50,826 bases of DNA from an uncultured bacterium (GTDB taxonomy: Bacteria; Patescibacteriota; Minisyncoccia; UBA6257; 2-01-FULL-56-20), in NCBI GenBank assembly GCA_963844965.1, contig CAWJQC010000002.1:1-50826 (forward strand). Reading direction: 5' to 3'. How positions within the stretch are numbered: position 1 is the stretch's first letter; each line of letters starts with the position of its first letter. Positions 760 to 26,906 of the stretch are shown here, one piece after another. The notes below the pieces were generated by a model. That model ran no database searches. It had not been told where the DNA came from and saw nothing but the letters and a program-made list of their open reading frames with translations. The translations under genes and the position numbers were made by a program.

Positions 760-1010
760 GGCCGCCTGCCATCCGCCTCGGCGGCCTTGATGACCGTAGC
801 CTCCAGTTCTTTCTGCTTGCGTTGTACCTCCTGTTCCTGGACGGCAATCTGCTCCTGGGTGCGCACCCTCTCCACACGCACCTCTTCCATGACCACTGCC
901 TGCTTGGCCTTGGCCTGCGACAGCGGACCGGCTTGCGCGGCCGTGGCCTTTTGCGTTTCCACTTCGGCCAGGAACTGGGCCTGCTTTACCTGAAAGTCAC
1001 ACTGCGCCCC
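760..1010 (-). pseudogene. SPFH/flotillin-like EA-rich coiled-coil fragment, fused in frame to the oxidoreductase remnant
   Basis: Minus ORF 585-1283 contains QAQFLAEVETQKATAAQ...EEVRVERVRTQEQIAVQEQEVQRKQKELEATVIKAAEA, typical of a band-7/flotillin C-terminal coil, with no stop before the NuoF-like piece. Confidence 0.2.
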
Positions 1011-1057
1011 AGCAATGTTGGCGTCGGCGTCGAACTTCGCCTTCTCGCCTTTCCTGC

Positions 1058-1124
1058 ACCACCTTTTCGGAAAAAGGTGGGGGTCAACCCCCACCTTTTC
1101 GCGCATCGCCCAAAAGGTGGGGGT
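1058..1124. repeat. Two G-rich hairpin repeats (CACCACCTTTTCGGAAAAAGGTGGGGG; CCCCCACCTTTTCGCGCATCGCCCAAAAGGTGGGGG), followed by a reverse copy of the conserved promoter block (revcomp GGGACGGTGTATAAC at ~1144-1158)
   Basis: Perfect inverted repeats read directly. Same family as at 3793-4259, 4587-4654 and 10377-10418. Confidence 0.6.
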
Positions 1125-1235
1125 TGTGTTCCGGGGCCAATCTTCGGTTATACACCGTCCCCGCAAATTCACGCTATTCGCGGAGCTATAATGTAAACGT
1201 AGCTGCGCAAAGGTCGAAAGCTTAATCATTAAAAC

Positions 1236-1787
1236 ATGGAGAAAAAAACAACAGACCAGCCGGCAGGGCCCCGAGCAGGTCAATTGACGGGGGAGAGGGC
1301 GCCCTACCGCGCGTTTGAGGAACGGAAGATGGAGCTGCAGAGGTCAAAAAATATGTGGCGAAATTTGTTTCTTGTGAACATCGTCCTCCTTCTTTGCGTG
1401 GCGTTTTTCGCGTTTTTGGGGCTGGCCGCGAACATCGGACTTACCGCGGTTCTGTGGCTTGAGCTCGCCCCGGCTCTGCCGCTTGTGTACTCCGCCGTTT
1501 TCATTCACGCCCAGCACAGCAGAGACCGGGAATATCTGGAAGAGTACTCGTTCAAGTCGGTTGTGGCGCGGTCACTGGAGTCGTACCGGATATTACTGAA
1601 GGAAGATATCAATCCGGAACACGCGGAAGAGCAGAAGAAATTCTTGGATTTCGTCATTGGCTCGGTGAATAATCTCTACGCATCCCCGCGCGCGGCGATA
1701 TCAAAGAATCCGGTGAAAGACGAGGAGGACGTGGGGGTGGGCATCGTTGAAAAACTCGGCGACGTCTTCAAGAAATTCATTCCCTAA
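1236..1787 (+). CDS. Hypothetical membrane protein (two predicted TM helices)
   Basis: ORF of 183 aa with hydrophobic stretch LFLVNIVLLLCVAFFAFLGLAANIGLTAVLWL. No recognisable motif. The true start may be an internal Met (1329 or 1356). Confidence 0.45.
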   Translation: MEKKTTDQPAGPRAGQLTGERAPYRAFEERKMELQRSKNMWRNLFLVNIVLLLCVAFFAFLGLAANIGLTAVLWLELAPALPLVYSAVFIHAQHSRDREYLEEYSFKSVVARSLESYRILLKEDINPEHAEEQKKFLDFVIGSVNNLYASPRAAISKNPVKDEEDVGVGIVEKLGDVFKKFIP

Positions 1788-1873
1788 GTCCCGTTTCAAA
1801 TTTCGTGGTATGTTTGCGCGATTTTTTGCGCGATTCTTGCGCGATTATGCGTCGTGCGGTATAATGGCAGTAT

Positions 1874-2933
1874 ATGTTCAATCCGCGCTATAAGCTGACC
1901 AATAAGATCGTGAGCATGCTTACCGCGATCGCCGAAGCGCGGTCGGTCATGAGTCGCGCCAAGCTTCTCCCGAAGCAGGAATTGCGGCTGCGGAGGCAGG
2001 CGTTGGTCAGGATGACCCATGCCTCGACGAAGATCGAGGGCAACGCCTTGAATCTCCGCCAGGTTGAGGCAGTGGCGGAACACAAGAAGATAGACGCGCC
2101 AGCCCGCGATATCTACGAGGTGGAAAATTATCTGAAGGCGCTCCGCTATATCAGCAAGGTCGTCGAAACGAAGCGCCCGGTTACCGAGAAGGTTGTTTTG
2201 CAAATTCATAAGCTGGTTACCGACAAAACGCTTCCGAAGGACCAGGCGGGCCATTATCGTTCCGTTCCCATTTACGTCGCAAGGCGGCGGTTGGGCATGC
2301 CGCAGGAAGTGATGTATACCGGGCCTGGCGCGAAACAAGTCCCGCGGCTCATGAAGAATCTCGTGCAATGGATTCAGGTAAGCGCGAATCGCGATATTCA
2401 TCCAATCGTCGCCGCGGGAATCGTCCATCAGGAAATAGCCGCGATCCATCCATTCGTGGATGGCAATGGCCGCACCGCCCGGGCGCTTGCCACGCTTATT
2501 CTCTACCAGCGAGGGTATGATTTCCGGCGACTCTTTGCGCTGGAGGACTATTACAATCGGGATCGGGCGCAGTATTATAAAGCCATCAACATCGGCAAGA
2601 ATTACGAAGAGCGTCGCGTTGATTTCACGCCGTGGCTTGAGTATTTTGTGAAAGGATTCAAAGAAGAAATTAATGGCGTAAAAGCCCAGGTCGTTTCACT
2701 TTCCAGGCGGAAAATTCATAACGTCGTTGAATCGCAGATTTTTCTCGCCAAAGACCAGCTGAAGAATCATTGATTTTCTTGAACAGGTGGGAAAGATTAC
2801 GGTCTCCGACGCGATGGACATCTTGGAATGCCCAAGGCGAACGGCGCAGCTGCAACTCCAGAAGCTGAAGAAGCTCAACATGATAACACAGGTGGGTAAA
2901 GGGCCGTCGTCGGCTTACGTACTCGCGCGATAG
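1874..2933 (+). CDS. Fic/DOC family protein. Core Fic domain is 1874-2773. The C-terminal winged-HTH is encoded in the +2 frame (about 2765-2933), so there is an apparent frameshift.
   Basis: Fic motif HPFVDGNGRTARAL in the ORF. After the stop at 2771, the shifted frame gives IIDFLEQVGKITVSDAMDILECPRRTAQLQLQKLKKLNMITQVGKGPSSAYVLAR, the typical Fic C-terminal wHTH. Confidence 0.8.
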
Positions 2934-3076
2934 CCACGACGTAGAAACGGCCGTTCCGAGTCGATTATGCCGGGGGAAATTTGGCGGTAAATTTCATTCT
3001 GTGACGGCCAATATTCCGCCTGCGCCGGCTGGCGGAAGGGGACGACCCGGCCTAAAACCGTCAAAAGGCGTTTTTG

Positions 3077-3105
3077 TTGACAAAACAAATCGCCGGGCAT
3101 ATAAT
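3077..3105 (+). promoter_or_regulatory. Consensus sigma70-like promoter TTGACA-N17-TATAAT
   Basis: ttgaca at 3077-3082, 17-nt spacer, tataat at 3100-3105. It points into a region with no + strand ORF (antisense to CDS 3253-3714). Confidence 0.5.
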
Positions 3106-3180
3106 TGAACCGGCAGTACTTATCCACAAGCACATAGAAATTTCATTAAAAGCGTTTTGGTATAATTTAAGTGTTATAAA

Positions 3181-3292
3181 TTGTTGTGGGGCTGGAAATG
3201 CAGAAAGGCTCTACTGCGGGGTATAAGTAGGCTCTTCGGAGCATCGAAAGTACTACGATGAGGGTCGCCGTTCCTCCCAGCTCCACAACAGT
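3181..3292 (+). ncRNA. Candidate structured small RNA / antisense RNA (strand uncertain)
   Basis: 14-bp closing helix TGTTGTGGGGCTGG / CCAGCTCCACAACA (1 mismatch). Internal hairpins GCAG..CTGC, GCTC-TTCG-GAGC (UUCG tetraloop) and CATCG..CGATG. Lies downstream of the perfect promoter at 3077-3105 and an extended -10 TGGTATAAT at 3158-3166. Confidence 0.25.
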
Positions 3293-3714
3293 TCGTAATT
3301 CTTCAGATAACCCCCTGCGGGCGCAAATGCGGTGGCTATGGTAATGCCTCCGTCGTTAGTTGTATCTATTTCGAACGAGACAAAATAATCCGTCCCCCGC
3401 ATTTTCTTTAAGAAACACTTTTCCCCTCGTTTCCCGGACTTGTTTGCGAGAATATGGTCGGGGTATTTTGCTATTGAAAATAAGTTGTCTAATAAAAAGT
3501 CAAACTCTTCTGCCGGTCTTTTATCGTACATATGCTTTAGGGCTCTGGTGTTTATGTAAACCTTTGCGGATACCGGATTAAGTTCACTTATGACTACTTT
3601 TGTGAGATGGCAAATTACAACCGTTACATCCGGGACTATCGCGCCCTTAATCGTTCCTTTTATGTATTTTTCGTAAAGATCGCGAACAACACGATTCGGT
3701 TTTTTGTGACTCAT
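3253..3714 (-). CDS. Hypothetical protein (153 aa), possibly a nuclease-like accessory protein
   Basis: Clean ORF with no confident motif. Weak resemblance to small phage/plasmid-associated RNase-like domains. Not verified. Confidence 0.45.
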   Translation of the reverse strand: MSHKKPNRVVRDLYEKYIKGTIKGAIVPDVTVVICHLTKVVISELNPVSAKVYINTRALKHMYDKRPAEEFDFLLDNLFSIAKYPDHILANKSGKRGEKCFLKKMRGTDYFVSFEIDTTNDGGITIATAFAPAGGYLKNYELLWSWEERRPSS

Positions 3715-3792
3715 GTTAACTATCGTACCCTAATTTGTATCCGTTTTTCAAATAAGCGCGCGGCAAGCGCCCGCGACGGCTTGGAAAAGATT

Positions 3793-3898
3793 GGGGGGTT
3801 GACCCCCACCTTTTCAGGAAAAAGTGGGAGGGTTGACCCCCGCCTTTTCGGAAAAAGTGGGAGGGTTGACCCCCACCTTTTCAGGAAAAAGATGGGGG
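3793..3898. repeat. Tandem array of three G-rich hairpins (unit ~37 bp: TTGACCCCCACCTTTTCAGGAAAAAGTGGGAGGG)
   Basis: Direct reading: three consecutive perfect or near-perfect inverted repeats, each separated by GTTGAC. Confidence 0.7.
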
Positions 3899-3927
3899 TT
3901 GACAAGAAATTGGGACGGGTGTATGAT
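3899..3927 (+). promoter_or_regulatory. Consensus promoter TTGACA-N17-TATGAT with conserved spacer block GGGACGGGTG
   Basis: ttgaca 3899-3904, tatgat 3922-3927. A paralogous block is at 4096-4125. Confidence 0.5.
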
Positions 3928-3993
3928 GCTCCCGTAAAAGTAAAGGCCGTTTGGTACGCAAAAAACAGCGAATAAACTCTAATTTCTCGGAAA

Positions 3994-4055
3994 CATAGCG
4001 AAGTTTTCCACCGGATGTCCAGAAGCATAACGAAGTTTTCCACCGGATGTCCAGA
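3994..4055 (+). repeat. Two tandem 32-bp direct repeats (CATARCGAAGTTTTCCACCGGATGTCCAGA) inside a short non-coding transcript unit
   Basis: Copies at 3994-4023 and 4026-4055 read directly. Located between promoter 3899-3927 and hairpin 4066-4095. Confidence 0.5.
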
Positions 4056-4065
4056 GGGGGGGATT

Positions 4066-4125
4066 GACCCCCACCTTTTTCAGAAAAGATGGGGGTTGAC
4101 ACCAGGACTGGGACGGGTGTATAAC
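4066..4125 (+). promoter_or_regulatory. G-rich hairpin (4066-4095), immediately followed by promoter TTGACA-N18-TATAAC (4096-4125)
   Basis: ccccaccttttt cag aaaagatggggg, then ttgacaccaggactgggacgggtgtataac. Same module as 3793-3927. Confidence 0.5.
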
Positions 4126-4174
4126 TCTAACTATTAAACACAAAAAGCAAAGGCCGGTTAGTGCCATAAATTCA

Positions 4175-4259
4175 CCCCCACCTTTTCGCGCATCGCGCAA
4201 AAGATGGGGGCAAAACAAATTCACCCCCACCTTTTCGCGCATCGCGCAAAAGATGGGGG
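4175..4259. repeat. Two long-stem hairpins (CCCCCACCTTTTCGCGCATCGCGCAAAAGATGGGGG), each preceded by AAATTCA
   Basis: Copies at 4175-4210 and 4224-4259. A third partial copy at 4264-4276 runs into the GIY-YIG start. Confidence 0.65.
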
Positions 4260-4282
4260 TCAGTCCCCACCTTTTAGGTCTT

Positions 4283-4543
4283 ATGTTCTATGTCTATATA
4301 CTGAAGAGCGCGAAAGATAAGAAATTGTATATAGGCTACACGAACAATCTTAAAAGGCGGATGGAAGAACATAAACAAAAGAAAGTTTTTTCAACTGCCT
4401 TGAGGAGCCCGCTTTCTCTTGCATACTACGAATCGTTTCGGTCACAGCAAGACGCTACGGCAAGAGAGAAGCAGTTGAAGCAGTTCAAGAGCGCATACGG
4501 TCAATTAAAAAAGCGCATCGTGAACAGCTTGCGTGAGGCCTAA
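4283..4543 (+). CDS. GIY-YIG nuclease-superfamily small protein (YhbQ/UPF0213-like)
   Basis: MFYVYILKSAKDKKLYIGYTNNLKRRMEEHKQ matches the GIY-YIG core (YVY..S....YIGYT.NL.RR..EH). A paralog is at 18509-18790. Confidence 0.75.
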   Translation: MFYVYILKSAKDKKLYIGYTNNLKRRMEEHKQKKVFSTALRSPLSLAYYESFRSQQDATAREKQLKQFKSAYGQLKKRIVNSLREA

Positions 4544-4586
4544 AAGGTTGGGGTAAACAAATAAATAAAAATTAAAAACAAATTCA

Positions 4587-4654
4587 CCCCCATCTTTTCA
4601 GAAAAAGGTGGGGGTCAATCCCCACCTTTTCGCGTATCGCGCAAAAGATGGGGG
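4587..4654. repeat. Two G-rich hairpins in the 5' leader of the giant surface-protein gene
   Basis: CCCCCATCTTTTCAGAAAAAGGTGGGGG (4587-4614) and CCCCACCTTTTCGCGTATCGCGCAAAAGATGGGGG (4620-4654). Confidence 0.6.
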
Positions 4655-4667
4655 TAAAAACAAAAAC

Positions 4668-7600
4668 ATGAAAAAAATTATTTCGGTCGGTTCGGTTTTA
4701 ATGCTTTCGTTTGGCGTTTTGGTTTCCAGCGCACCAATGGCGTTGGCGGCAGTTGGCACCCCGGTAAGCATTGGGCAAAATTCCAGCATAAGCAATAGTT
4801 CCAGTATTAGCATCACCGTACCTTCTGGCGGAGTGGCTACTGGAAATACAATAATTATTAGTTTTGCGATGGATCCGCAAACCGGCACTGTAACTGCTTC
4901 AGACACCAAGGGCAATACTTATAATAAAGATACTGATGTCTCAAATGGGACAGGGTCTTCTGGTGTTAGGACTATAGTTTTTTCCGCACCCGTAACTACG
5001 GCATTAGTATCGGGTAATACTATAACGGTTAGTTTTCCTACGGCCAAATCCAAAGCGATTAGCGTTTATTATGTTAGTGGTTTAGTTTCAGCATCTCCCA
5101 CAGACCAAACTCACACCGGGACGGCGGATAGTAGCAGCCCAAGCTCTGGTGCCGCAGCAACAACGACACAAGCCAATGAATTGCTGATTGGGGTGATAGG
5201 AAGTGAGTCTTCTTTAGGGAATGGCCACACCATTACAGCGGGTTCTGGCTTCACTGGATTGACAGGTGCCTCTGCCGACACCAGATCTTCTGATACATCG
5301 CAGCAAGTTTTTCCAGAATATCAAACTGTGAGCACGACCGGAGCTTATACCGCAACTGGTTCAGTAGCTGGTGCTTCTCACAATTGGGCAGCCGCTATCG
5401 TGACATATAAAGCCGCTACTACTAAATCAACCCCCACCTTTTCCAATTTAACAGCTAACTCGTCTGTCACTTATGGTGCAAGCAATATAGCTCTTAGTGG
5501 TAGAGTTAGCGCTACCGGCCCTGTTTATCCGGCTAACGGAGAAACAATCACTGTCACAATTAATGGGAACGCGCAGACAACCACAATCAACGATTCAACT
5601 GGCGACTTCTCCATCAATTATAATCCCTCTACTATACCCTATTCAGCTAGTGCCTATACTATAACGTATTCTTATGCTGGCGATCCCTCATTAAATCCTG
5701 CGACCGATACTAGTAGAACTCTCACGGTAAACAAGACTGCACTTAGCATCACCGCCAATAATGACAACAAGACCTATGGTCAGACCAAAACATATGGAGC
5801 TGGATCTACGGCCTTTATAAGTAGCGGCCTACAGAATAGTGAAACAATCGGGTCGGTTACAATTACGGCTAGCGGAGGCACGACTGCTAATTCAAATGTG
5901 GGTAGTTATAACTTAACGCCCAGTACTGCAACTGGTGGAACATTTAATGCTAATAACTACACAATCACTTATAAGGAGGGCACTCTTACTGTTAATCCTT
6001 TGGCCGTAACTCTAACCGGCAGTCGCCCTTACGATGGTACGGCTAATGCGTCCTATTCCATTTTATCTGTATCCAATAAGGTTGAAGGCGACGTCGTTAA
6101 TGTTGTTTCCGGCAACGGAACTTTGGCTGGAGCAAGTGTCGGCTCACAAAACATTACATCAGTTGGAACTTTGGCGCTGGGCGGCGCGAATGCGGGTAAC
6201 TACACATTAACCGGCGCGACAGGTTCCGTTTCTATAACCAAAGCTGGCCAAACAATTACTGTTACAACTCCAGCTCCGGCGTCTGCTGCGTACAACTCGA
6301 CCTTCGGGGTTGCCGCCACCTCTGATTCCGGCCTCGATGTCGCGATCACCACGAGCGGTTCCTGTTCTGGTTCTGGCACCAATTCCGCGACGGTCACGAT
6401 GACCAGCGGCACCGGCACTTGCACTGTTCACTACAACCAGGCGGGCGATGCCAACTATTCTGCGGCGACTGAAGTGACGAGCGATACTGCCGCCGCCTTA
6501 AAGGCACAAACGATAAACGTTACAACTCCAGCTCCGGCGTCTGCTGCGTACAACTCGACCTTCGGGGTTGCCGCCACCTCTGATTCCGGCCTCGATGTCG
6601 CGATCACCACGAGCGGTTCCTGTTCTGGTTCTGGCACACAATTCCGCGACGGTCACGATGACCAGCGGCACCGGCACTTGCACTGTTCACTACAACCAGG
6701 CGGGCGATGCCAACTATTCTGCGGCGACTGAAGTGACGAGCGATACTGCCGCCGCCTTAAAGGCACAAACGATCAACGTTACAACTCCAGCTCCGGCGTC
6801 TGCTGCGTACAACTCGACCTTCGGGGTTGCCGCCACCTCTGATTCCGGCCTCGATGTCGCGATCACCACGAGCGGTTCCTGTTCTGGTTCTGGCACCAAT
6901 TCCGCGACGGTCACGATGACCAGCGGCACCGGCACTTGCACTGTTCACTACAACCAGGCGGGCGATGCCAACTATTCTGCGGCGACTGAAGTGACGAGCG
7001 ATACTGCCGCCGCCTTAAAGGCACAAACGATAAACGTTACAACTCCAGCTCCGGCGTCTGCTGCGTACAACTCGACCTTCGGGGTTGCCGCCACCTCTGA
7101 TTCCGGCCTCGATGTCGCGATCACCACGAGCGGTTCCTGTTCTGGTTCTGGCACCAATTCCGCGACGGTCACGATGACCAGCGGCACCGGCACTTGCACT
7201 GTTCACTACAACCAGGCGGGCGATGCCAACTATTCTGCGGCGACTGAAGTGACGGATACCACAAGCGCAACCAAGGCAGACCCCGGTATGAATACATGGC
7301 CGACAGCCAGTTCGATCACTTACGGCCAGACGCTGGCGGATTCCACCTTAACCGGTGGTAGTGCAACGCCTGCTGGCAGTTTTGCGTTCACTACGCCTTC
7401 CACGGTGCCCGATGCAGGCACTGCTTCGCAAGATGTAACATTCACACCGACCGATACAGCCGACTACAATACAGCCGCTGGCACGGTGAGCGTGACGGTT
7501 AATGCGGCGCCCTCGCTGACCTCCGCCACGATTACGAGCGACGGTTCATCCATCGGTGATCTTACCGGCGCCACTCTTACAACCACTGATTCCGGTTCTT

Positions 7601-9654
7601 GCAACGGCAGCAATAGCGATTCTTCCGCCTGCCATACCTTAAATGTCAGTAGTGTGTTGGTGAGTAATGGTCCTTTGCTGAAAGAGAATGATGGATTTGC
7701 ATTACAAGCCGATGCTACGCAGCAAGCCGCCCTCACGGCATATTTCGCCGCCAAAGGATGGCCAGCCGGTTATGTCACTCAAATTGATTCAGAAATAGCT
7801 GGCAGCGCACCTTTCTTCTACTTTGTTTCCGACGGCAGCGGCAACTACAGCTTGGCTGACGGATTCCAATGGGGATTGGGCAACCACAACCAGCCCTTGG
7901 TCATTGACGACAATTATCCCGCCGGAACGTACACGTATGCCGGCACCGTTGGTGGCAATTCGGTGACCGTGACTTTGACGGTGACGAAAGCGCCAGCGAC
8001 TGTTTCCGTCACCGGCGTTTCTCTTAACGAAAATAGTAGGACTCTTAGGGTTGGCGACACCGACCAGCTTACGGCGACCATTTCTCCATCTGGCGCTACC
8101 AATCAAGGCGTTACTTGGTCGTCAAACAATACAAGCGCGGCGACCGTTGATAGTAGCGGCCTTGTGACCGCAGTTGCGACTAGTTCGGCGACTATCACCG
8201 TGACAACGGATGACGGCGGCAAGACCGATACCGATGCAATCACGGTGGAAGCGCCTCGTTATACGCGCACGCCGAGTGGCTCGTCGCCGATTCCTCAAGG
8301 CACAACCGTAACGATTACAACCGCCGGAGATAGTATGTATGACTTATTAAAGGATTATGTGACTGCATTTAAGTTGGTCTTTAACACGGGAAGCGGCGGC
8401 ACAATCGTTTCTCCTTGCGAAGCAAGTCCGAATGTTATTTGGGAGCTGAAGAATTTATCGCCTGATACCTACACTTTAGGAGCACCGCTTGTTTATAATG
8501 ATGCAGTTGGTAGCGACTACTGCACAACGCCGGATGGATCGGTTTGGCTCAGTAGCGATAGCTTCACCGTTGTAGCTTCGCCCAGTGACGCCACGATCAC
8601 GTCCGCATCCTATACCGTGGATTCCACTCTCAACACAATCATCAACGTTCCTTTCGGAACGGCAAAGGCCACTTTCTTGGCTGCTCTAACGCCGGCAACG
8701 GGAGCAACCTTGGATGATTCTGGTATTACCGACCCAGTGGTATCTGCCAACACCTTAAAAGTTACCGCTCAGGACGGTGTGACGACCAAAACTTATACCG
8801 TTACCGTGAACACCGCACCGAGTGCTGACGCCACGATCACGTCCGCATCCTATACCGTGGATTCCACTCTCAACACAATCATCAATGTTCCTTTCGGAAC
8901 GGCAAAGGCCACTTTCTTGGCTGCTCTAACGCCGGCAACGGGAGCAACCTTGGATGATTCTGGTATTACCGACCCAGTGGTATCTGCCAACACCTTAAAA
9001 GTTACCGCTCAGGACGGTGTGACGACCAAAACTTATACCGTTACCGTGAACACCGCGCCTGCCGCGACGAGCACATTGAACGTATATCTTACGGTTGACA
9101 ATTCGCAGGGCGGCTCGGCGGCACCATCCAACTTCACGGTCAGCGTGATAGCAAGTCCGACATCTACTTTCCCCGGAGACGCTTCGGGCACGGCAGTCAC
9201 GATTGATGCCAACGAATCGTATGGCGTGAATGTTTCCTCGCTCACGGATTACACAATGGGAACAAGCGGCAGCTGCAATGGCACGAACGCTCTTCCGGCG
9301 AGCAGCTCAATAACCTGCGCAATTACGGAAACCTTCTTGCCCCTTATTTCACAACAGGGTTCGTCCAATCCGACCACCGATTCCATCACCGTAACCTGGA
9401 CTACGGACCATCCGGCAACGAGCCGTGTAATCTACGACACCGTGTCGCATCCGGACCCGCTTGCGACCTCGACGGCGAATTATGGCTACGCTAATTCCAC
9501 GGTTGAGGACTCCACGCTTCTTACGAGCCACAGCGTGACTGTCTCCGGTCTTGCGGCTGGCACGACTTACTACTTCCGTGCTGTTTCCCATGGCTCTCCC
9601 GAAACTGTAAGCGATGAATTTACCGGAACGACAACCTCGCCGGCGCCGCTGTGA
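4668..9654 (+). CDS. Giant secreted surface/adhesin-like protein (~1660 aa) with MBG-like, Big_2-like and FN3-like domains and internal tandem repeats. There is an apparent +1 frameshift near 6636-6640.
   Basis: Signal peptide MKKIISVGSVLMLSFGVLVSSAPMALAAVG. YG..KTYG / NNYTITY MBG-like segments. Big_2-like segment VSVTGVSLNENSRTLRVGDTDQLTATISPSGATNQGVTWSSNN. FN3-like C-terminus (TVTWTTDHPATSRVIYD...TTYYFRAVSHG). The ORF track splits it into 4608-6731 and 6568-9654 because repeat copy 2 reads ggcacacaattcc versus ggcaccaattcc in copies 1, 3 and 4. Confidence 0.75.
6245..7255 (+). repeat. About 3.9 near-identical tandem copies of a 258-bp (86-aa) unit inside the surface-protein gene
   Basis: GTTACAACTCCAGCTCCGGCG recurs at 6261, 6519, 6778 and 7036. 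The period is 258 bp, or 259 bp for the copy carrying the extra base. Confidence 0.85.
8581..9060 (+). repeat. Two tandem 240-bp (80-aa) repeats inside the surface-protein gene
   Basis: GACGCCACGATCACGTCCGCATCC at 8588 and 8828. Peptide ATITSASYTVDSTLNTIINVPFGTAKATFLAALTPATG... occurs twice. Confidence 0.8.
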
Positions 9655-10343
9655 CAACTGGCGGCGGTGGCGGCGGCGGAGGCAGTTACTATAATCCCTA
9701 CACCGTTACAATTAACGGCGGCGCCACTCAAACCGCTTCGGCGAACGTAACGCTCGCGCTTACGACAATCGCGGGGATGAACCAGATGTGGATTTCCAAC
9801 GACCCGACTTTCGCGACGGCGGGAAGCGGCTGGATTCCGTTCCAGGCAACCTATCCGTGGACTTTAACCGCGGGAGCGGGCTATAAGACCGTGTACGCGA
9901 GTTTCGGTAACACGACTCTGGCAACGCCCGCGGAAAACGCGGAGGCCAGCATAACGGTTGGCGGCGCAAACGCTTCGGGCGGACAGGTCTTGGGCGCAGC
10001 CACCTTTAGGTTCACGAAGAATTTGTATCCGGGCATGACAGACAGCGACGTGACCCAATTGCAGCTCCGGCTTACGGCTGAAGGCGTGTACTCCGGGCCG
10101 ATAACCGGTTATTACGGCTCGCTTACCACGGCCGGAGTGAAGGCCTATCAGGCGAAATACGGCATTCAGCAGACCGGCACGGTCGGTCCGCTTACGAGAG
10201 CGCAACTGAACGGCTCCGCGGTTGAGGGAGCGTCAACTGTGAATATCGGAGCGCTGCAGGCGCAGATCGCTTCGCTGCAGACCCAGTTGCTTGCTCTGCT
10301 CCAACAGTTGGCGCAGATGCTGCAGTCGCAGGTTGGACACTAA
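9651..10343 (+). CDS. Peptidoglycan-binding (PG_binding_1-like) domain protein with N-terminal Gly run. Possibly the detached C-terminus of the upstream surface protein.
   Basis: LQLRLTAEGVYSGPITGYYGSLTTAGVKAYQAKYGIQQTGTVGPLTRAQL matches the PG-binding-1 repeat. GTG start overlaps the upstream TGA. There is no signal peptide of its own. Confidence 0.55.
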   Translation: MTTGGGGGGGGSYYNPYTVTINGGATQTASANVTLALTTIAGMNQMWISNDPTFATAGSGWIPFQATYPWTLTAGAGYKTVYASFGNTTLATPAENAEASITVGGANASGGQVLGAATFRFTKNLYPGMTDSDVTQLQLRLTAEGVYSGPITGYYGSLTTAGVKAYQAKYGIQQTGTVGPLTRAQLNGSAVEGASTVNIGALQAQIASLQTQLLALLQQLAQMLQSQVGH

Positions 10344-10376: not shown

Positions 10377-10418
10377 AAAGCCCCCACCTTTTTCCGAAAA
10401 GGTGGGGGCTTGCTTTTT
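10377..10418 (+). terminator. Rho-independent terminator built from the G-rich hairpin family
   Basis: AAAAGCCCCCACCTTTTTCCGAAAAGGTGGGGGCTTGCTTTTT: GC-rich stem followed by a T-run, 34 nt after the stop at 10341-10343. Confidence 0.7.
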
Positions 10419-18487: not shown

Positions 18488-18508
18488 ACCCAGTAGAGGA
18501 ATTTCGAA

Positions 18509-18790
18509 TTAGTTTCGCCTCAGAAAGTTGCGCAATTGCAACTTGAGAAATCTGCGACCTTGGGTTGTTTTGAGATAATTTTCACGTCGTTTTGCATCAT
18601 CTTCGTTCTTGCATACTTCTGCATAGATAAAATCAAATGGTGCCCTTGGTGCCGTTGCGAAACTTTTTTTGGCATTATGTTCAGCGAATCGGCGCCCGAT
18701 GTTGGTTGTATATCCGATATAGAAATTGCCATCTTTTCTACTGCACAGCACATAAACATAATGCCAGTTCGAAATTCTCCTACTGGGCAT
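18509..18790 (-). CDS. GIY-YIG nuclease-superfamily small protein (paralog of 4283-4543)
   Basis: WHYVYVLCSRKDGNFYIGYTTNIGRRFAEHN. Confidence 0.75.
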   Translation of the reverse strand: MPSRRISNWHYVYVLCSRKDGNFYIGYTTNIGRRFAEHNAKKSFATAPRAPFDFIYAEVCKNEDDAKRRENYLKTTQGRRFLKLQLRNFLRRN

Positions 18791-18855
18791 GTTTTTATCA
18801 TCGCACCAACGGCATTTTTTGACAATTCGCGGCGGAGTTTTATAATTCTTTGGTA

Positions 18856-20436
18856 TTAAAGGCGCGGGAGGGCTGGGGAAGGTTTTCTCCGGGGAGCCCC
18901 ATAAGCTCCTGAAGCGGGTTCAATTCCCGCCCCCGCAAATAAATGTGACCTATCTCCTGTAAACCCCCTGTTTAGCTCGAAGATGGGCGACAAAACAGCG
19001 GTTCCATACTTTCCGGTGGATTTATCAAAAATGATTCCACTCGGGAAGATTAACCTTTGGAATCGCTGTTTTTGTTCAACGTCCATGTCCTGCCACTGGC
19101 GAGCAGGGTCTCGCAGAAATTGAAAAGCGTAATCAAGGGACGCCTCGATGTTCAGTTCGTCGGTTTTGGTTTCGTTGTTCGATATTCTAATGCCTGCAAT
19201 CTGGTTTTCCAGGGATTCCTTAGTACCTAAAAACTCCTCTTTTGTTAGTTCGCCGTTTATCCGCATTTGCATAAGCCGTTCCTTTTTTGATTCCAGCAGC
19301 CGCAGTTCCTTTTCGTAGCCCTCTCCAGCGTTTTTAAGCTCGCCTTGCTGGTTTTGCCAGTTATCTATCACCACGGCCCTAAAAGCCGACAAAAACCCTT
19401 CTGTCGGCGTTACCTTGCGGAGTTTCTTAATAAATTCTTTTTCCAGCTCTTGTGCATCAATGCCCTGGTTTTTATGCTGGCAGCCTTCGTTATGGCACTC
19501 GTAATAGGCGTATTTCTTGTTTCTGCCGGTGTGCCAACTGCCGGTGAGTTTCCTACTACAAGGACACAGAACAAAGCGCCGCAAAGGAAAGTCGGGGTTT
19601 AATCGGAGGCGGGGGATATTCTTGATCCGCGAATAGTGGCTTTTTAGATATTGAATTTGCTCGTATTCCTCCGTGGCAATCATTGGCTGATGCAATCCCC
19701 TATATTCTTTACCCGTCCACGGATCAACCAAAATTCCGGCATAATACTTGTCCTTAAGTATTCTCTCGAAAAGTTGTTTAAACATCGGCTTGCCGGTCCT
19801 TGTTCTAAATCCCCACTGGTTCATTAGCTTGACTACTTCTTGCATCGAGCGGCCACCCTGTAAATAGGTTTTTAAGCCACGCTGGACGAGATCAAACCTT
19901 TCGGGGTCCGGCTCGTCCGGCCTTGTTTTCCTCCTGTCGCTTATTTTTTTGGCATGAATGTATCCGATGGGCGGTTGCCACGGCCAAATCCCCTCCATGA
20001 TTTTCCTTTGTAGACCGCCCTCGCAGCGCTGTTTTCTGATGTCATTCTCGAATTGAGCGTAACCGGCCAAAACCGCCTCGGTCATCTTGCCGATTGGATT
20101 GTCGCCAATTGGTTCGGTCACTGAGTGTAAGATTGTGCCGTATTTTACGAGCTGGGCTTGTAAGCCGTAATGGTCGGTTGTATTCCTTGCGAACCTATCT
20201 ATTTTCCAAACGATAAACGCTCCAATTTCTCCCTTATGTTCTCGGCAGTATTCCAGTGCTTTAATTAGTTCCGTTCTGTTAGCTGCCGTGGCCGATTCGC
20301 CCTTCTCAATAAAAATTTCGGTTATTTTGATACCTTTTTTTCCGGCGTATTCCAAGCAGGCCTGTTTTTGGTTATCCAGGCTTGTGCCGGAAACCTGCTC
20401 TTGACTTGATACGCGGCAATAAATGATTCCTTTCAT
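18856..20436 (-). CDS. Large serine recombinase (resolvase/invertase N-domain + recombinase domain + Zn ribbon)
   Basis: MKGIIYCRVSSQEQ catalytic-Ser region, FARNTTDHYGL, C-terminal CPCSRKL...YYECHNEGCQ zinc ribbon. Confidence 0.85.
   Translation of the reverse strand: MKGIIYCRVSSQEQVSGTSLDNQKQACLEYAGKKGIKITEIFIEKGESATAANRTELIKALEYCREHKGEIGAFIVWKIDRFARNTTDHYGLQAQLVKYGTILHSVTEPIGDNPIGKMTEAVLAGYAQFENDIRKQRCEGGLQRKIMEGIWPWQPPIGYIHAKKISDRRKTRPDEPDPERFDLVQRGLKTYLQGGRSMQEVVKLMNQWGFRTRTGKPMFKQLFERILKDKYYAGILVDPWTGKEYRGLHQPMIATEEYEQIQYLKSHYSRIKNIPRLRLNPDFPLRRFVLCPCSRKLTGSWHTGRNKKYAYYECHNEGCQHKNQGIDAQELEKEFIKKLRKVTPTEGFLSAFRAVVIDNWQNQQGELKNAGEGYEKELRLLESKKERLMQMRINGELTKEEFLGTKESLENQIAGIRISNNETKTDELNIEASLDYAFQFLRDPARQWQDMDVEQKQRFQRLIFPSGIIFDKSTGKYGTAVLSPIFELNRGFTGDRSHLFAGAGIEPASGAYGAPRRKPSPALPRL
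18873..18918 (+). other. tRNA-like 3' fragment (anticodon arm with CAT, 4-nt variable loop, T-arm, acceptor 3' strand). Probable attachment-site core.
   Basis: GGAGC-CCCATAA-GCTCC, TGAA, GCGGG-TTCAATT-CCCGC, CCCCGCA-A. No matching 5' acceptor strand or D-arm upstream. Confidence 0.4.
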
Positions 20437-21681: not shown

Positions 21682-21996
21682 TGCCCCTTTTGGGGCTGCT
21701 CCCCTTAAACAAAAAGAAAACAACCCCTATTTGGTTGTTTCCCGCTTGCGAGACGGTGGGTACTACTTTGTTGAGCTTTCCAGCCCAAGTTGAGCCTCTC
21801 GGCCCAAAACCCATTGGCTTAATCATTCCGAGCCTCCGCCAGTATTTAGTTATATAGTAATTATACCATACTTTGGATTAAAAAAGCAAGGGCGGTGTAT
21901 ATTTGAAAAATCTTCAAGATAGGGGGTAGAATGTAAGTACAACTCAATATCAGCGGCCTAAACCATTTGACAACGGGTGGCATGGCACAAAAATCC

Positions 21997-22095
21997 TCCT
22001 TCCAGATACCAAACACCACGTTTGGCCTACTTCTGGAAGGAGGTCGCCCCGAAAGGGTGCGGGTGCCGCAAGGCATCGGGTCGGCGTGGTGTTTT
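21997..22095 (+). promoter_or_regulatory. Candidate structured 5' leader / riboswitch-like element ending in a terminator-like hairpin
   Basis: Nested hairpin CTTCCAGA-T-ACCAAAC-ACCAC-GTTTGG-CCTAC-TTCTGGAAG (21997-22038). Long-range pairing AACACCACG (22009-22017) with CGTGGTGTT followed by TTTGTG (22083-22095). Candidate promoter TTGAAA-N18-TAGAAT at ~21905-21935. Confidence 0.3.
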
Positions 22096-26719: not shown

Positions 26720-26906
26720 GGCTGGATAGCTCAGCGGTAGAGCAGACGTTTTTCACCCGCCCACCTTTTATGCCAGGGTAGCTCAGCGGCAGAGCAGACG
26801 TTTCATAAGCGTCGGGTCGTGGGTTCGACTCCCACCCCTGGCACTAAGCAAAAAGGTGGGCGGGCAAGTAAGCGTCGGGTCGTGGGTTCGACTCCCACTC
26901 CAGCCA
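26720..26906 (+). tRNA. Split/interrupted tRNA gene: exon 1 is 26720-26755, exon 2 is 26871-26906, and a 115-nt intervening sequence contains a whole second tRNA
   Basis: GGCTGGA-TA-GCTC-AGCGGTA-GAGC-A-GACGT-TTTTCA ... A-GCGTC-GGGTC-GTGGG-TTCGACT-CCCAC-TCCAGCC-A. Acceptor and anticodon stems pair perfectly across the interruption. Confidence 0.5.
26772..26843 (+). tRNA. tRNA with anticodon CAT (elongator Met or Ile2-lysidine type; G1-C72 paired, so not initiator-like)
   Basis: GCCAGGG-TA-GCTC-AGCGGCA-GAGC-A-GACGT-TTCATAA-GCGTC-GGGTC-GTGGG-TTCGACT-CCCAC-CCCTGGC-A: canonical cloverleaf, no encoded CCA. Confidence 0.85.

Follow-up and report, generated by a model that had tools for sequence, protein, structure and literature searches.

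What does a short, G-rich hairpin do when it recurs again and again within a few kilobases, and to what does it belong? The question is raised by a 50,826-nt stretch of DNA from an uncultured member of the Patescibacteriota (assembly GCA_963844965.1, contig CAWJQC010000002.1, positions 1 to 50,826 of the forward strand; the whole stretch is hereafter called the window), in which such hairpins crowd around a small gene of the GIY-YIG family. An initial annotation had read them as transcription terminators fused to promoters. In our best reading, the hairpins of 1056-4654 form a local cluster of a palindromic repeat family that resembles the repetitive extragenic palindromes (REPs), and one arm pair of this family encloses the entire GIY-YIG open reading frame (ORF). 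We propose that the family, whose hairpins would mimic a Shine-Dalgarno sequence, is the niche or the solo form of a selfish GIY-YIG element and was amplified locally, an explanation on which we stand evenly divided between acceptance and doubt.

A hairpin family with a GIY-YIG gene inside

The repeated unit, 28-37 bp long, has the form CCCCCACCTTTT-loop-AAAAG(G/A)TGGGGG, with CCCCCACCTTTT/AAAAGGTGGGGG as its arm pair. When at most one mismatch was allowed, the arm CCCCACCTTTT was matched 26 times in the window, against 1.12 matches expected and a maximum of 5 in dinucleotide-preserving shuffles of the same sequence, and 11 complete short-loop hairpins were found (H1-H8 and H10-H12), so that the hairpin is indeed repeated many times, as first annotated. 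Ten of these 11 lie within 1056-4654. Once the hairpin that carries the ORF is counted as well, 11 of 12 fall into 3.6 kb around the GIY-YIG gene, or ~7% of the window; this total leaves out a related pair of arms that flanks a tRNA-Met (26754-26769 and 26851-26865) and that had been recognized before as an inverted repeat around a nested tRNA. The loops are of two classes, one short (3-5 nt) and one long (GCGCATCGCGC), the latter with a mini-stem of its own, and the stems have RNA folding energies of -9.4 to -24.7 kcal/mol. The members of the family, and the GIY-YIG genes of the window, are as follows.

1056-1084: hairpin H1, short loop
1087-1124: hairpin H2, long loop GCGCATCGCCC
1056-1124: two-hairpin module formed by H1 and H2, linker TCAA
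3783-3798: orphan 3' arm that opens the 33-bp array
3802-3831: hairpin H3, in the 33-bp array
3836-3864: hairpin H4, in the 33-bp array
3869-3898: hairpin H5, in the 33-bp array and part of duplication unit A
3783-3898: 33-bp tandem array (orphan 3' arm, H3, H4 and H5), linker TTGA
4067-4095: hairpin H6, part of duplication unit B
4174-4210, plus strand: hairpin H7, long loop, in the predicted 5' leader downstream of the promoter-like site P2
4223-4259, plus strand: hairpin H8, long loop, in the same predicted leader downstream of P2
4265-4553, plus strand: cargo-bearing hairpin, 5' arm CCCCACCTTTTAGGTCTT (4265-4282), 3' arm GAGGCCTAAAAGGTTGGGG (4535-4553)
4283-4543, plus strand: GIY-YIG ORF, 86 aa, the whole of it between the arms of that hairpin
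4586-4614, plus strand: hairpin H10, first of a two-hairpin module
4618-4654, plus strand: hairpin H11, second of the same module
10380-10409, plus strand: hairpin H12, perfect 13-bp stem, T-rich tail
18509-18790, minus strand: second GIY-YIG paralogue, 93 aa, 50% identity over 64 aa

The tandem arrays, the two-hairpin modules and both hairpin-plus-promoter units are products of local duplication. Tandem Repeats Finder returned a 33-bp array at 3783-3903 (3.6 copies, 88% matches), in agreement with the three tandem hairpins annotated at about 3793-3898; the orphan 3' arm in front of them (3783-3798) and the twelfth, split hairpin that encloses the GIY-YIG ORF had been overlooked. The module at 1063-1124 is a 92% copy of 4594-4655, and two hairpin-plus-promoter units (3862-3975 and 4060-4175) align over ~105 nt, including their AAAGGCCG segments, so that modular, duplicated units and paralogous segments behind both promoters had been correctly described. 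At the joints of the array, GGGGG-TTGA-CCCCC is palindromic in itself and alternative pairing registers are possible. In the lowest-energy fold of the H10-H11 module (4586-4654) the outer arms (1 and 4) pair, as do the inner arms (2 and 3), and with this pairing the C.A mismatch conserved in the short-loop hairpins vanishes; from the last G-run of the module it is 13 nt to the ATG (4668) of an Ig-like surface protein gene (4668-6731). A clustered regularly interspaced short palindromic repeat (CRISPR) array was considered and rejected, as the units are joined by a 4-nt linker, have no spacers and match CRISPR-DR57 at E > 1 only. Rfam gave no family over 900-4800 at gathering or permissive thresholds (best E = 0.097, far below the gathering score).

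The GIY-YIG gene fits tightly into its hairpin. The 5' arm CCCCACCTTTTAGGTCTT ends one base before the ATG, the TAA stop codon lies within the 3' arm GAGGCCTAAAAGGTTGGGG, and the lowest-energy fold of 4260-4560 has the two arms paired. The single-domain, 86-aa product matches Pfam PF01541 with E = 3.9e-17 over profile positions 1-73 of 78, reaches 22 bits against a cutoff of 56 with the NCBIfam group I intron endonuclease model TIGR01453, and has its nearest solved structures in the UPF0213 proteins 1zg2 and 1ywl. Proteins of the UPF0213 type are a minimal, stand-alone version of the Slx1-like GIY-YIG domain, and Slx1 is a structure-specific nuclease (PMC1564403). Judged by its sequence, the nested ORF encodes a minimal nuclease of the GIY-YIG family, UPF0213 (Slx1-like) type, and hairpins of the kind around it may be what it cleaves. 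No recognised transposase (DDE, Y1 or serine) was found within the repeats, where the 86-aa GIY-YIG protein is the sole enclosed ORF.

The same nesting is found around relatives of this protein. At E <= 1e-5 there are 254 of them, many with a length of 86 aa and an identity of 70-81%. Several sources label them as Patescibacteria proteins; many of the homologues lie on contigs of 1-2 kb. In L086 and L087, two loci whose proteins are 70-81% identical, the ORF fits flush between its arms as it does in the window, and in L087 the arms have undergone compensatory changes (CCCCCTCTTTT/AAAAGAGGGGG). A flanking inverted repeat of at least 11 matches was present in 58 of 78 related metagenomic loci; the median was 15 matches, compared with a median of 7 and a maximum of 10 in the shuffled control. 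The arms nearly always start CCCC..CAC and end GTG..GGGG, their inner parts being lineage-specific. Distant UPF0213 genes on Planktothrix and Spirosoma replicons also lie between inverted repeats. A viral origin was rejected, since no viral contig matched the hairpin and phage matches to the GIY-YIG protein were distant only.

Across these loci the two arms covary. For 15 close loci, pairing in the 22-pair helix stands at 90% and six of its pairs have changed on both sides, with a covariation score of 0.232 vs 0.129 +/- 0.017 in shuffles and 0.03-0.10 for slid partners; when the partners are slid by 1-3 columns, only 42-67% of positions pair. In the six inner pairs next to the ORF, G.U cells outnumber A.C cells by 24 to 6, an excess which suggests that pairing is favoured in the sense RNA; in the outer stem the numbers are 8 and 10. 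The AGGA that precedes the GIY-YIG start lies within this inner helix, which would thereby mask the ribosome-binding site of the gene. We picture a sense RNA in which the arms around the ORF pair with each other, hiding the nuclease's own ribosome-binding site, and in which these paired arms keep the outer hairpin whole, so that the insertion would be structurally silent for the host transcript. The hairpin would then be the habitat of the GIY-YIG gene and probably also its terminal inverted repeat or solo form; it may have originated as an older host signal that the gene came to exploit, or as the gene's own terminal repeat, proliferating as solo copies.

Hairpins before start codons and signs of mobility

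A census in which one genome per species was scanned found the complete hairpin in many metagenome-assembled genomes (MAGs) of Patescibacteria, including Paceibacterota, Doudna-, Nealson-, Zambryski-, Yonath- and Brennerbacteria and Saccharibacteria. Of the 85 loci that matched, at least 18 belong to a single Paceibacterota MAG, JBAZMG01, which has the same hairpin sequence at a G+C content of 42%, compared with 50.6% in the window. This MAG holds 26 distinct hairpins in 133 kb. Half of them (13/26) lie 5-22 nt upstream of an ATG (ORFs of at least 80 codons), vs 9% of random positions (p = 9e-8), and 11 of the 12 asymmetric copies have the same orientation in the sense of the gene, with CCCCACC as 5' arm and GATGGGG as 3' arm. 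One hairpin precedes rpsB (4380-4411 in locus L004), and a large-loop copy with a 63-nt insert (5147-5231) lies between rpsB and tsf, which form a classically co-transcribed operon; loops measure 3-12 nt, and as many as 63 nt. The genes behind the JBAZMG01 hairpins encompass rpsB, tsf, rpsT, RNase J, trpS, both subunits of a 2-oxoacid:ferredoxin oxidoreductase, a pilin and surface proteins, and this functionally unrelated assortment led us to reject a regulon.

The sequence of the arms is suggestive as well. In hairpin variants on other contigs (CCCCCTCCTTT...AAAGGAGGGGG), the 3' arm is a canonical Shine-Dalgarno sequence and the 5' arm resembles the 3' tail of 16S rRNA, which in the E. coli-type form used for the comparison reads CACCUCCUUU. 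The short-loop hairpins would thus be stem-loops in 5' untranslated regions (UTRs) or between cistrons, in which a purine-rich, Shine-Dalgarno-like 3' arm, AAAGG[A/U]GGGGG, may be masked by an anti-Shine-Dalgarno-like 5' arm. An RNA thermometer of the fourU or ROSE type seems unlikely: here the U-run pairs with the A-run and not with the Shine-Dalgarno core.

The GIY-YIG gene looks selfish, with a tendency towards the 5' ends of transcription units. Seven loci contain two copies each. In L112 (1890-2925), one ORF6N gene is interrupted by two GIY-YIG elements with identical arms (ACCCCGCACCTTTTAAGCAT), the first at about codon 6, right before the point at which the ORF6N Pfam profile begins, and the second 24 codons before the end of the gene, with an AAATTT direct repeat on both sides. 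Many distant relatives end 0-20 nt before tRNA genes (L120, L138, L148, L153, L172, L174 and others); here the tRNA's first G residues double as the end of the element's 3' arm, and a repeat of 10-11 nt from the 5' end of the tRNA is found left of the 5' arm. The second paralogue in the window has a leaderless-type ATG directly after TTGTCA-17-GATGAT and is enclosed by a 20-bp inverted repeat of its own, CCCAGTAGGAGAATTTCGAA (element 18489-18802, minus strand). The start codon of murD (18487) comes directly after the 3' arm of this element, with an ATG on both sides. Next to the second GIY-YIG gene, and reported here as a feature of the neighbourhood, is a large serine recombinase gene (18856-20436, minus strand; Resolvase, Recombinase and Zn_ribbon_recom domains).

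A bolder reading of these copies is a new class of mobile element, made of a ~85-aa GIY-YIG gene in a hairpin-forming inverted repeat that inserts in hairpin loops and at the extreme 5' ends of transcription units; we regard it as possible and hold it tentatively. Such an element would target hairpins in 5' UTRs, tRNA genes within their first 10 nt, and leaderless genes at their start codons. Its arms would re-form the host helix in the transcript, making the insertion silent and masking the ribosome-binding site of the nuclease, and loss of the ORF, or mobilisation in trans, would yield REP-like solo hairpins that build up in arrays. We infer that the short-loop hairpins are mobile too.

A split tRNA gene elsewhere in the window also has arms of the hairpin family (26720-26906). 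Its anticodon loop is interrupted by an insertion of ~113 nt that consists of a complete tRNA-Met (26772-26844) and the arms CACCCGCCCACCTTTT/AAAAGGTGGGCGGG around it (26754-26865, plus strand). The outer halves, when joined, give a valid cloverleaf at every junction tried, and the outer gene is itself flanked by CCCAAATT/AATTTGGG. This arrangement may be another product of a loop-targeting process.

Several results weigh against our preferred explanation, a REP-like hairpin family that is the niche or solo form of a selfish GIY-YIG element. As regards mobility, no clear target-site duplication was seen at the 5'-UTR-type copy of the window or at the short-loop hairpins, the 86-aa GIY-YIG protein has no DNA-binding domain, and we know of no strand-transfer chemistry in GIY-YIG enzymes. 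In 17 of the 17 closest loci, moreover, ATGAAAAA... of a signal-peptide protein, drawn from several families, follows 8-20 nt after the 3' arm, and so constant a gene order in the closest relatives could be conserved synteny; orthologues of one downstream surface-protein family do exist without a GIY-YIG gene, and one locus (L180) has a short-loop hairpin in the leader instead. As regards the tie between hairpin and gene, no GIY-YIG gene was detectable in the 133 kb of JBAZMG01 that were fetched, despite the 26 hairpins, and repeat families in MAGs of Acidobacteriota and Methylomirabilota share the hairpin core, C.A mismatch included. The copies there (L014, L022, L032, L039, L047, L049, L066, L077 and L080) have conserved flanks of their own, GGGG-CACCC, and no GIY-YIG gene was detected within 8 kb of them. 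As regards a Shine-Dalgarno role, proximity to start codons is modest over all Patescibacteria loci (17/88 vs 11% in the control) and strong in JBAZMG01 alone; the window's genes appear to be mostly leaderless, without Shine-Dalgarno sequences; the G-run of H11, at 13 nt from the ATG, is rather far away; and most short-loop hairpins carry a C.A mismatch in the gene-sense RNA, where the antisense strand would have G.U.

Some of these results invite a plainer account, in which the hairpins are host regulatory structures of 5' UTRs and nothing else, acting on translation or mRNA stability by masking ribosome-binding sites or as 5' stabilisers, while the GIY-YIG gene is a vertically inherited passenger and nothing is mobile. 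It would explain why the JBAZMG01 hairpins keep a fixed position and orientation with respect to start codons, why the arms resemble Shine-Dalgarno and anti-Shine-Dalgarno sequences and why the same sequence is kept at 42% and 50% G+C, and it sits well with the GIY-YIG gene standing before a signal-peptide gene in 17 of 17 loci and with the lack of target-site duplications at 5'-UTR-type and short-loop copies. We nevertheless consider it unlikely. The array at 3783-3898 lies upstream of a promoter and has no start codon downstream, the genes associated with hairpins are functionally unrelated, and GIY-YIG genes occur in multiple copies, with different arms, at tRNA 5' ends and inside the ORF6N gene, with direct repeats flanking them. 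Orthologous loci without the GIY-YIG gene exist, and both the leaderless genes of the window and the C.A mismatch in sense RNA count against regulation by these hairpins as well.

Promoter-like sites, proposed terminators and other features of the window

The promoter-like sites among the hairpins are listed here with the units and repeats around them.

3899-3927, plus strand: P1, TTGACA-17-TATGAT, 11/12 consensus matches
4096-4125, plus strand: P2, TTGACA-18-TATAAC
3862-3975, plus strand: duplication unit A, made of H5, P1 and a AAAGGCCG segment (3942-3959)
4060-4175, plus strand: duplication unit B, made of H6, P2 and a AAAGGCCG segment (4149-4166)
3990-4055: tandem 32-bp repeat, 2.1 copies (Tandem Repeats Finder), found nowhere else in the window
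1147-1163, minus strand: reversed, imperfect spacer/-10 block GGGGACGGTGTATAAC, with an indel and without a -35 hexamer
3722-3751, minus strand: promoter-like TTGAAA-18-TACGAT, 7 nt before the ATG that starts the divergent gene 3253-3714

The initial annotation had combined intrinsic terminators and sigma70 promoters into insulated cassettes that may be spreading as units, one of which would make a small RNA of ~130 nt. The stems are indeed stable and G+C-rich (about -9 to -25 kcal/mol), P1 and P2 are near-consensus, a hairpin abuts the -35 hexamer in L052 and L067 too, and promoter-like sites are enriched in the first 12 kb of the window (19 vs 8.7 expected). H12 (10380-10409) is a canonical terminator, 37 nt after the stop codon of gene 9651-10343 and directly before the promoter of a leaderless gene, and the textbook terminator annotated at 10377-10418 therefore stands, as the sole copy of this kind. 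A terminator was taken to have at least 5 U within the 8 nt directly after the stem; H12 alone has such a tract (6/8 U), the other ten hairpins having 0-4 U on either strand. H10-H11 follow a stop codon and H3-H8 follow none, H3-H5 being situated in a divergent intergenic region where no gene ends. Five hairpins (H7, H8, the ORF-bearing one, H10 and H11) stand between P2 and both genes that P2 should express, and in JBAZMG01 the hairpins lie 5-22 nt before start codons rather than after stops, and also inside the rpsB-tsf operon. By lack of a U-tail in 10 of 11 hairpins, the terminator reading fails its defining test for most copies, and in our best reading the short-loop hairpins are not classical terminators.

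The promoter half of the cassette fared better. Both sigma70-like promoters exist exactly where they had been placed, and P1 and P2 are plausible promoters by their hexamers and spacing. P2 is the likely promoter of the GIY-YIG gene and of the surface-protein gene downstream; the second cassette does lead into the GIY-YIG gene in that the gene is downstream of P2, the part that had been missed being that the gene is itself nested in a hairpin. P1 is best read as the duplicated copy of P2, without a conserved product. In both, the -35 hexamer TTGACA is the array linker TTGAC plus one base, and TTGAC[A/T] directly adjoins a hairpin in L052 and L067 as well, both of them loci of other Patescibacteria; TTGAC was rejected as a constant component of the hairpin repeat, being present in 7 of 192 flanks only. 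P1 and P2 also have in common the spacer block GGGACGGGTGTAT, of which the window contains exactly two copies and for which, at up to 2 mismatches, no convincing match was found in 174 related loci (~1 Mb). Only local duplication of the promoter cassette is therefore seen: it is a local duplication and not a dispersed module, contrary to the spread that had been proposed for it. A reversed copy of the block, reported at about 1144-1158, proved imperfect, with an indel and no -35 hexamer, and GGGGACGGTGTATAAC-type matches at 3 mismatches are at chance level (11 found vs 9.2 expected).

Nor did the proposed small RNA gain support. The tandem 32-bp repeats downstream of P1 are there (3990-4055), and both copies hold a weak minus-strand promoter-like pair, TGGACA-18-TATGYT. 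The fold of the RNA that P1 would produce (3934-4100) is no better than that of shuffled sequence (z = -1.05), the 32-bp repeat has no match among the related loci fetched, and the transcript placed at 3930-4060 has neither an Rfam family nor an ORF worth noting. Altogether, we judge the terminator-promoter cassette model improbable. Least convincing of all, and very improbable in our judgement, is a purely DNA-level site, at which a host protein would bind or cut the palindromes as double-stranded or cruciform DNA, much as a nucleoid, topoisomerase or recombination factor has been proposed to do at the bacterial interspersed mosaic elements (BIMEs) of E. coli, with no RNA role and no tie to the nuclease other than a shared location: it could claim the near-equal G.U and A.C cells of the outer stem (8 vs 10), the non-transcribed-looking position of the arrays upstream of P1 and the alternative arm registers around the TTGA linker, but loops of 3 to 12 and up to 63 nt are unfit for a dimer that reads a fixed half-site spacing, orientation and distance are biased relative to start codons, and sense-strand G.U pairs dominate the inner helix around the ORF.

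Apart from the hairpins, the leaders share a motif. The sequence (T)AAAGG[T/C]CGA(AA) is present in units A and B as AAAGGCCG (3942 and 4149), and (T)AAAGG[T/C]CGA lies 40-130 nt upstream of the GIY-YIG gene in 13 of 17 close loci, vs 0.09 expected. It is also found before GIY-less orthologues and other genes, including three in the window (1210, 22307 and 32346), and its occurrences (L095-L111, L177, L180 and L184) often come right after a -10-like box or a hairpin; these bacteria may use it as a signal in leaders or close to promoters. Many gene starts in the window (e.g. 1874, 3714, 10442, 32784, 35601 and 38183) have a -10-like box 5-12 nt before the ATG and Shine-Dalgarno sequences are almost absent from them, a pattern suggesting that leaderless mRNAs are common in the source organism. 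The same is suggested for the gene at 3253-3714, a weak match to a PBECR3-like nuclease, by the layout of the promoter-like site at 3722-3751. A perfect TTGACA-17-TATAAT (3077-3105, plus strand; region 3077-3300), with a TGGTATAAT box, precedes a 129-nt stretch that forms a long irregular hairpin (-49.5 kcal/mol, z = -4.2) and has no Rfam match; this candidate unannotated RNA overlaps the 3' end of the minus-strand gene 3253-3714.

Other parts of the window deserve a brief record. Its first 1050 nt have a G+C content of 0.60, vs ~0.50 elsewhere, and in one minus-strand frame a fragment that is flotillin-like by eye is fused to a C-terminal (4Fe-4S) fragment of NuoF; they may be remnants of genes, foreign DNA or the result of an assembly join at the H1-H2 repeat. 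The Fic-family gene at 1874-2933 (plus strand) stops at 2773, and a winged-helix-looking C-terminal segment continues in another frame (2772-2933); the gene is frameshifted, as a pseudogene or by a sequencing error. Downstream of the hairpin nest, large surface-protein genes contain coding tandem repeats that are 99% identical (6261-7254, 258 bp x 3.8 copies; 8586-9056, 240 bp x 2 copies). A full-length LOOT RNA (Rfam RF03000) lies at 21955-22077 (plus strand), with 74 bits against a gathering score of 46.

Comparison with known systems

A close likeness is to the REPs and BIMEs of Proteobacteria and their REP-associated tyrosine transposases (RAYTs), together known as the REP/RAYT or REPIN system. 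There as here, imperfect intergenic palindromes of 20-40 bp occur singly, in clusters and as inverted doublets able to form a larger fold, and inverted copies of the repeat lie on both sides of a nuclease-type gene. REPs are believed to be transcribed and to function as hairpins at the RNA level (PMC3733652). Their tag GTAG or CGTC (PMC3733652) is missing here, where the arms start CCCC(C) and the flanks are TAAAA or TGAAT. The RAYT gene encodes a Y1 (IS200/IS605-like) transposase, and the ORF enclosed here a minimal GIY-YIG protein (other ORFs of the window were not scanned for Y1). REPs are mostly found downstream of genes, whereas hairpins of the window type stand upstream of start codons in JBAZMG01, and a RAYT gene lies between two separate REPs, whereas the ORF described here is flush inside a single hairpin.

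The closest published parallel that we found comes from the same group of hosts. In rRNA genes of the Candidate Phyla Radiation (CPR), GIY-YIG ORFs have been reported in insertions that are neither group I nor group II introns, most of them at the top or base of stem-loops (PMC11270868). In those insertions and in intervening sequences (IVS), which sit at the tips of rRNA stem-loops, the host structure is rRNA; here a small, repeated hairpin takes its place, located in the leader of an mRNA or a tRNA or in a start-codon region. Unlike the CPR insertions, the elements described here bring or use a 12-22 bp inverted repeat of their own, and short-loop copies of the hairpin are themselves repeated. 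I-TevI, the Seg proteins of T-even phages and the endonuclease ORFs of group I introns likewise combine a GIY-YIG domain with multiple copies, patchy distribution and variable contexts, and the intron ORFs, like that of the window, sit in a terminal loop with the fold of the host RNA preserved. Unlike I-TevI and Seg, the window protein has 86 aa, no C-terminal DNA-binding module, no intron and no relatives that were found on viral contigs.

Among elements without a gene, the Correia (NEMIS) elements of Neisseria are promoter-bearing miniature inverted-repeat transposable elements (MITEs), short inverted repeats that are intergenic, are co-transcribed and can supply -35/-10 hexamers. The hairpin-adjacent TTGAC linker, which forms the -35 hexamer of P1 and P2, recalls them; Correia elements differ in being 100-155 bp long, in duplicating a TA target and in having no associated gene. 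Of the marks of a MITE or an insertion sequence, terminal inverted repeats are found at 58 of 78 GIY-YIG loci, and direct repeats at L112 and at the tRNA-adjacent copies, while none is evident at the 5'-UTR copy of the window or at the short-loop hairpins.

The UPF0213 proteins BH0048 (1zg2), EF2693 (1ywl) and E. coli YhbQ belong to the same family as the window protein and have the same size, and in the searchable literature we found no paper that links small GIY-YIG/UPF0213 genes to hairpins, REPs or tRNA 5' ends. If our explanation is right, this large orphan family would gain a testable role, the structure-specific cleavage of hairpin or cruciform DNA. Should the hairpins in fact mask ribosome-binding sites, they would constitute a genome-wide signal for translation or mRNA stability in organisms whose gene expression is little known. 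At a practical level, such repeats probably break metagenomic assemblies and can be mis-annotated as terminators or as parts of ORFs. REPs are abundant in bacteria, and so far the RAYT tyrosine transposase is the only enzyme tied to them; the GIY-YIG element would add a second, unrelated nuclease family living in its own palindromic repeat, which would suggest that the REP lifestyle evolved more than once, in this case in the reduced Patescibacteria genomes and, it seems, in the tRNA leaders of further bacteria.

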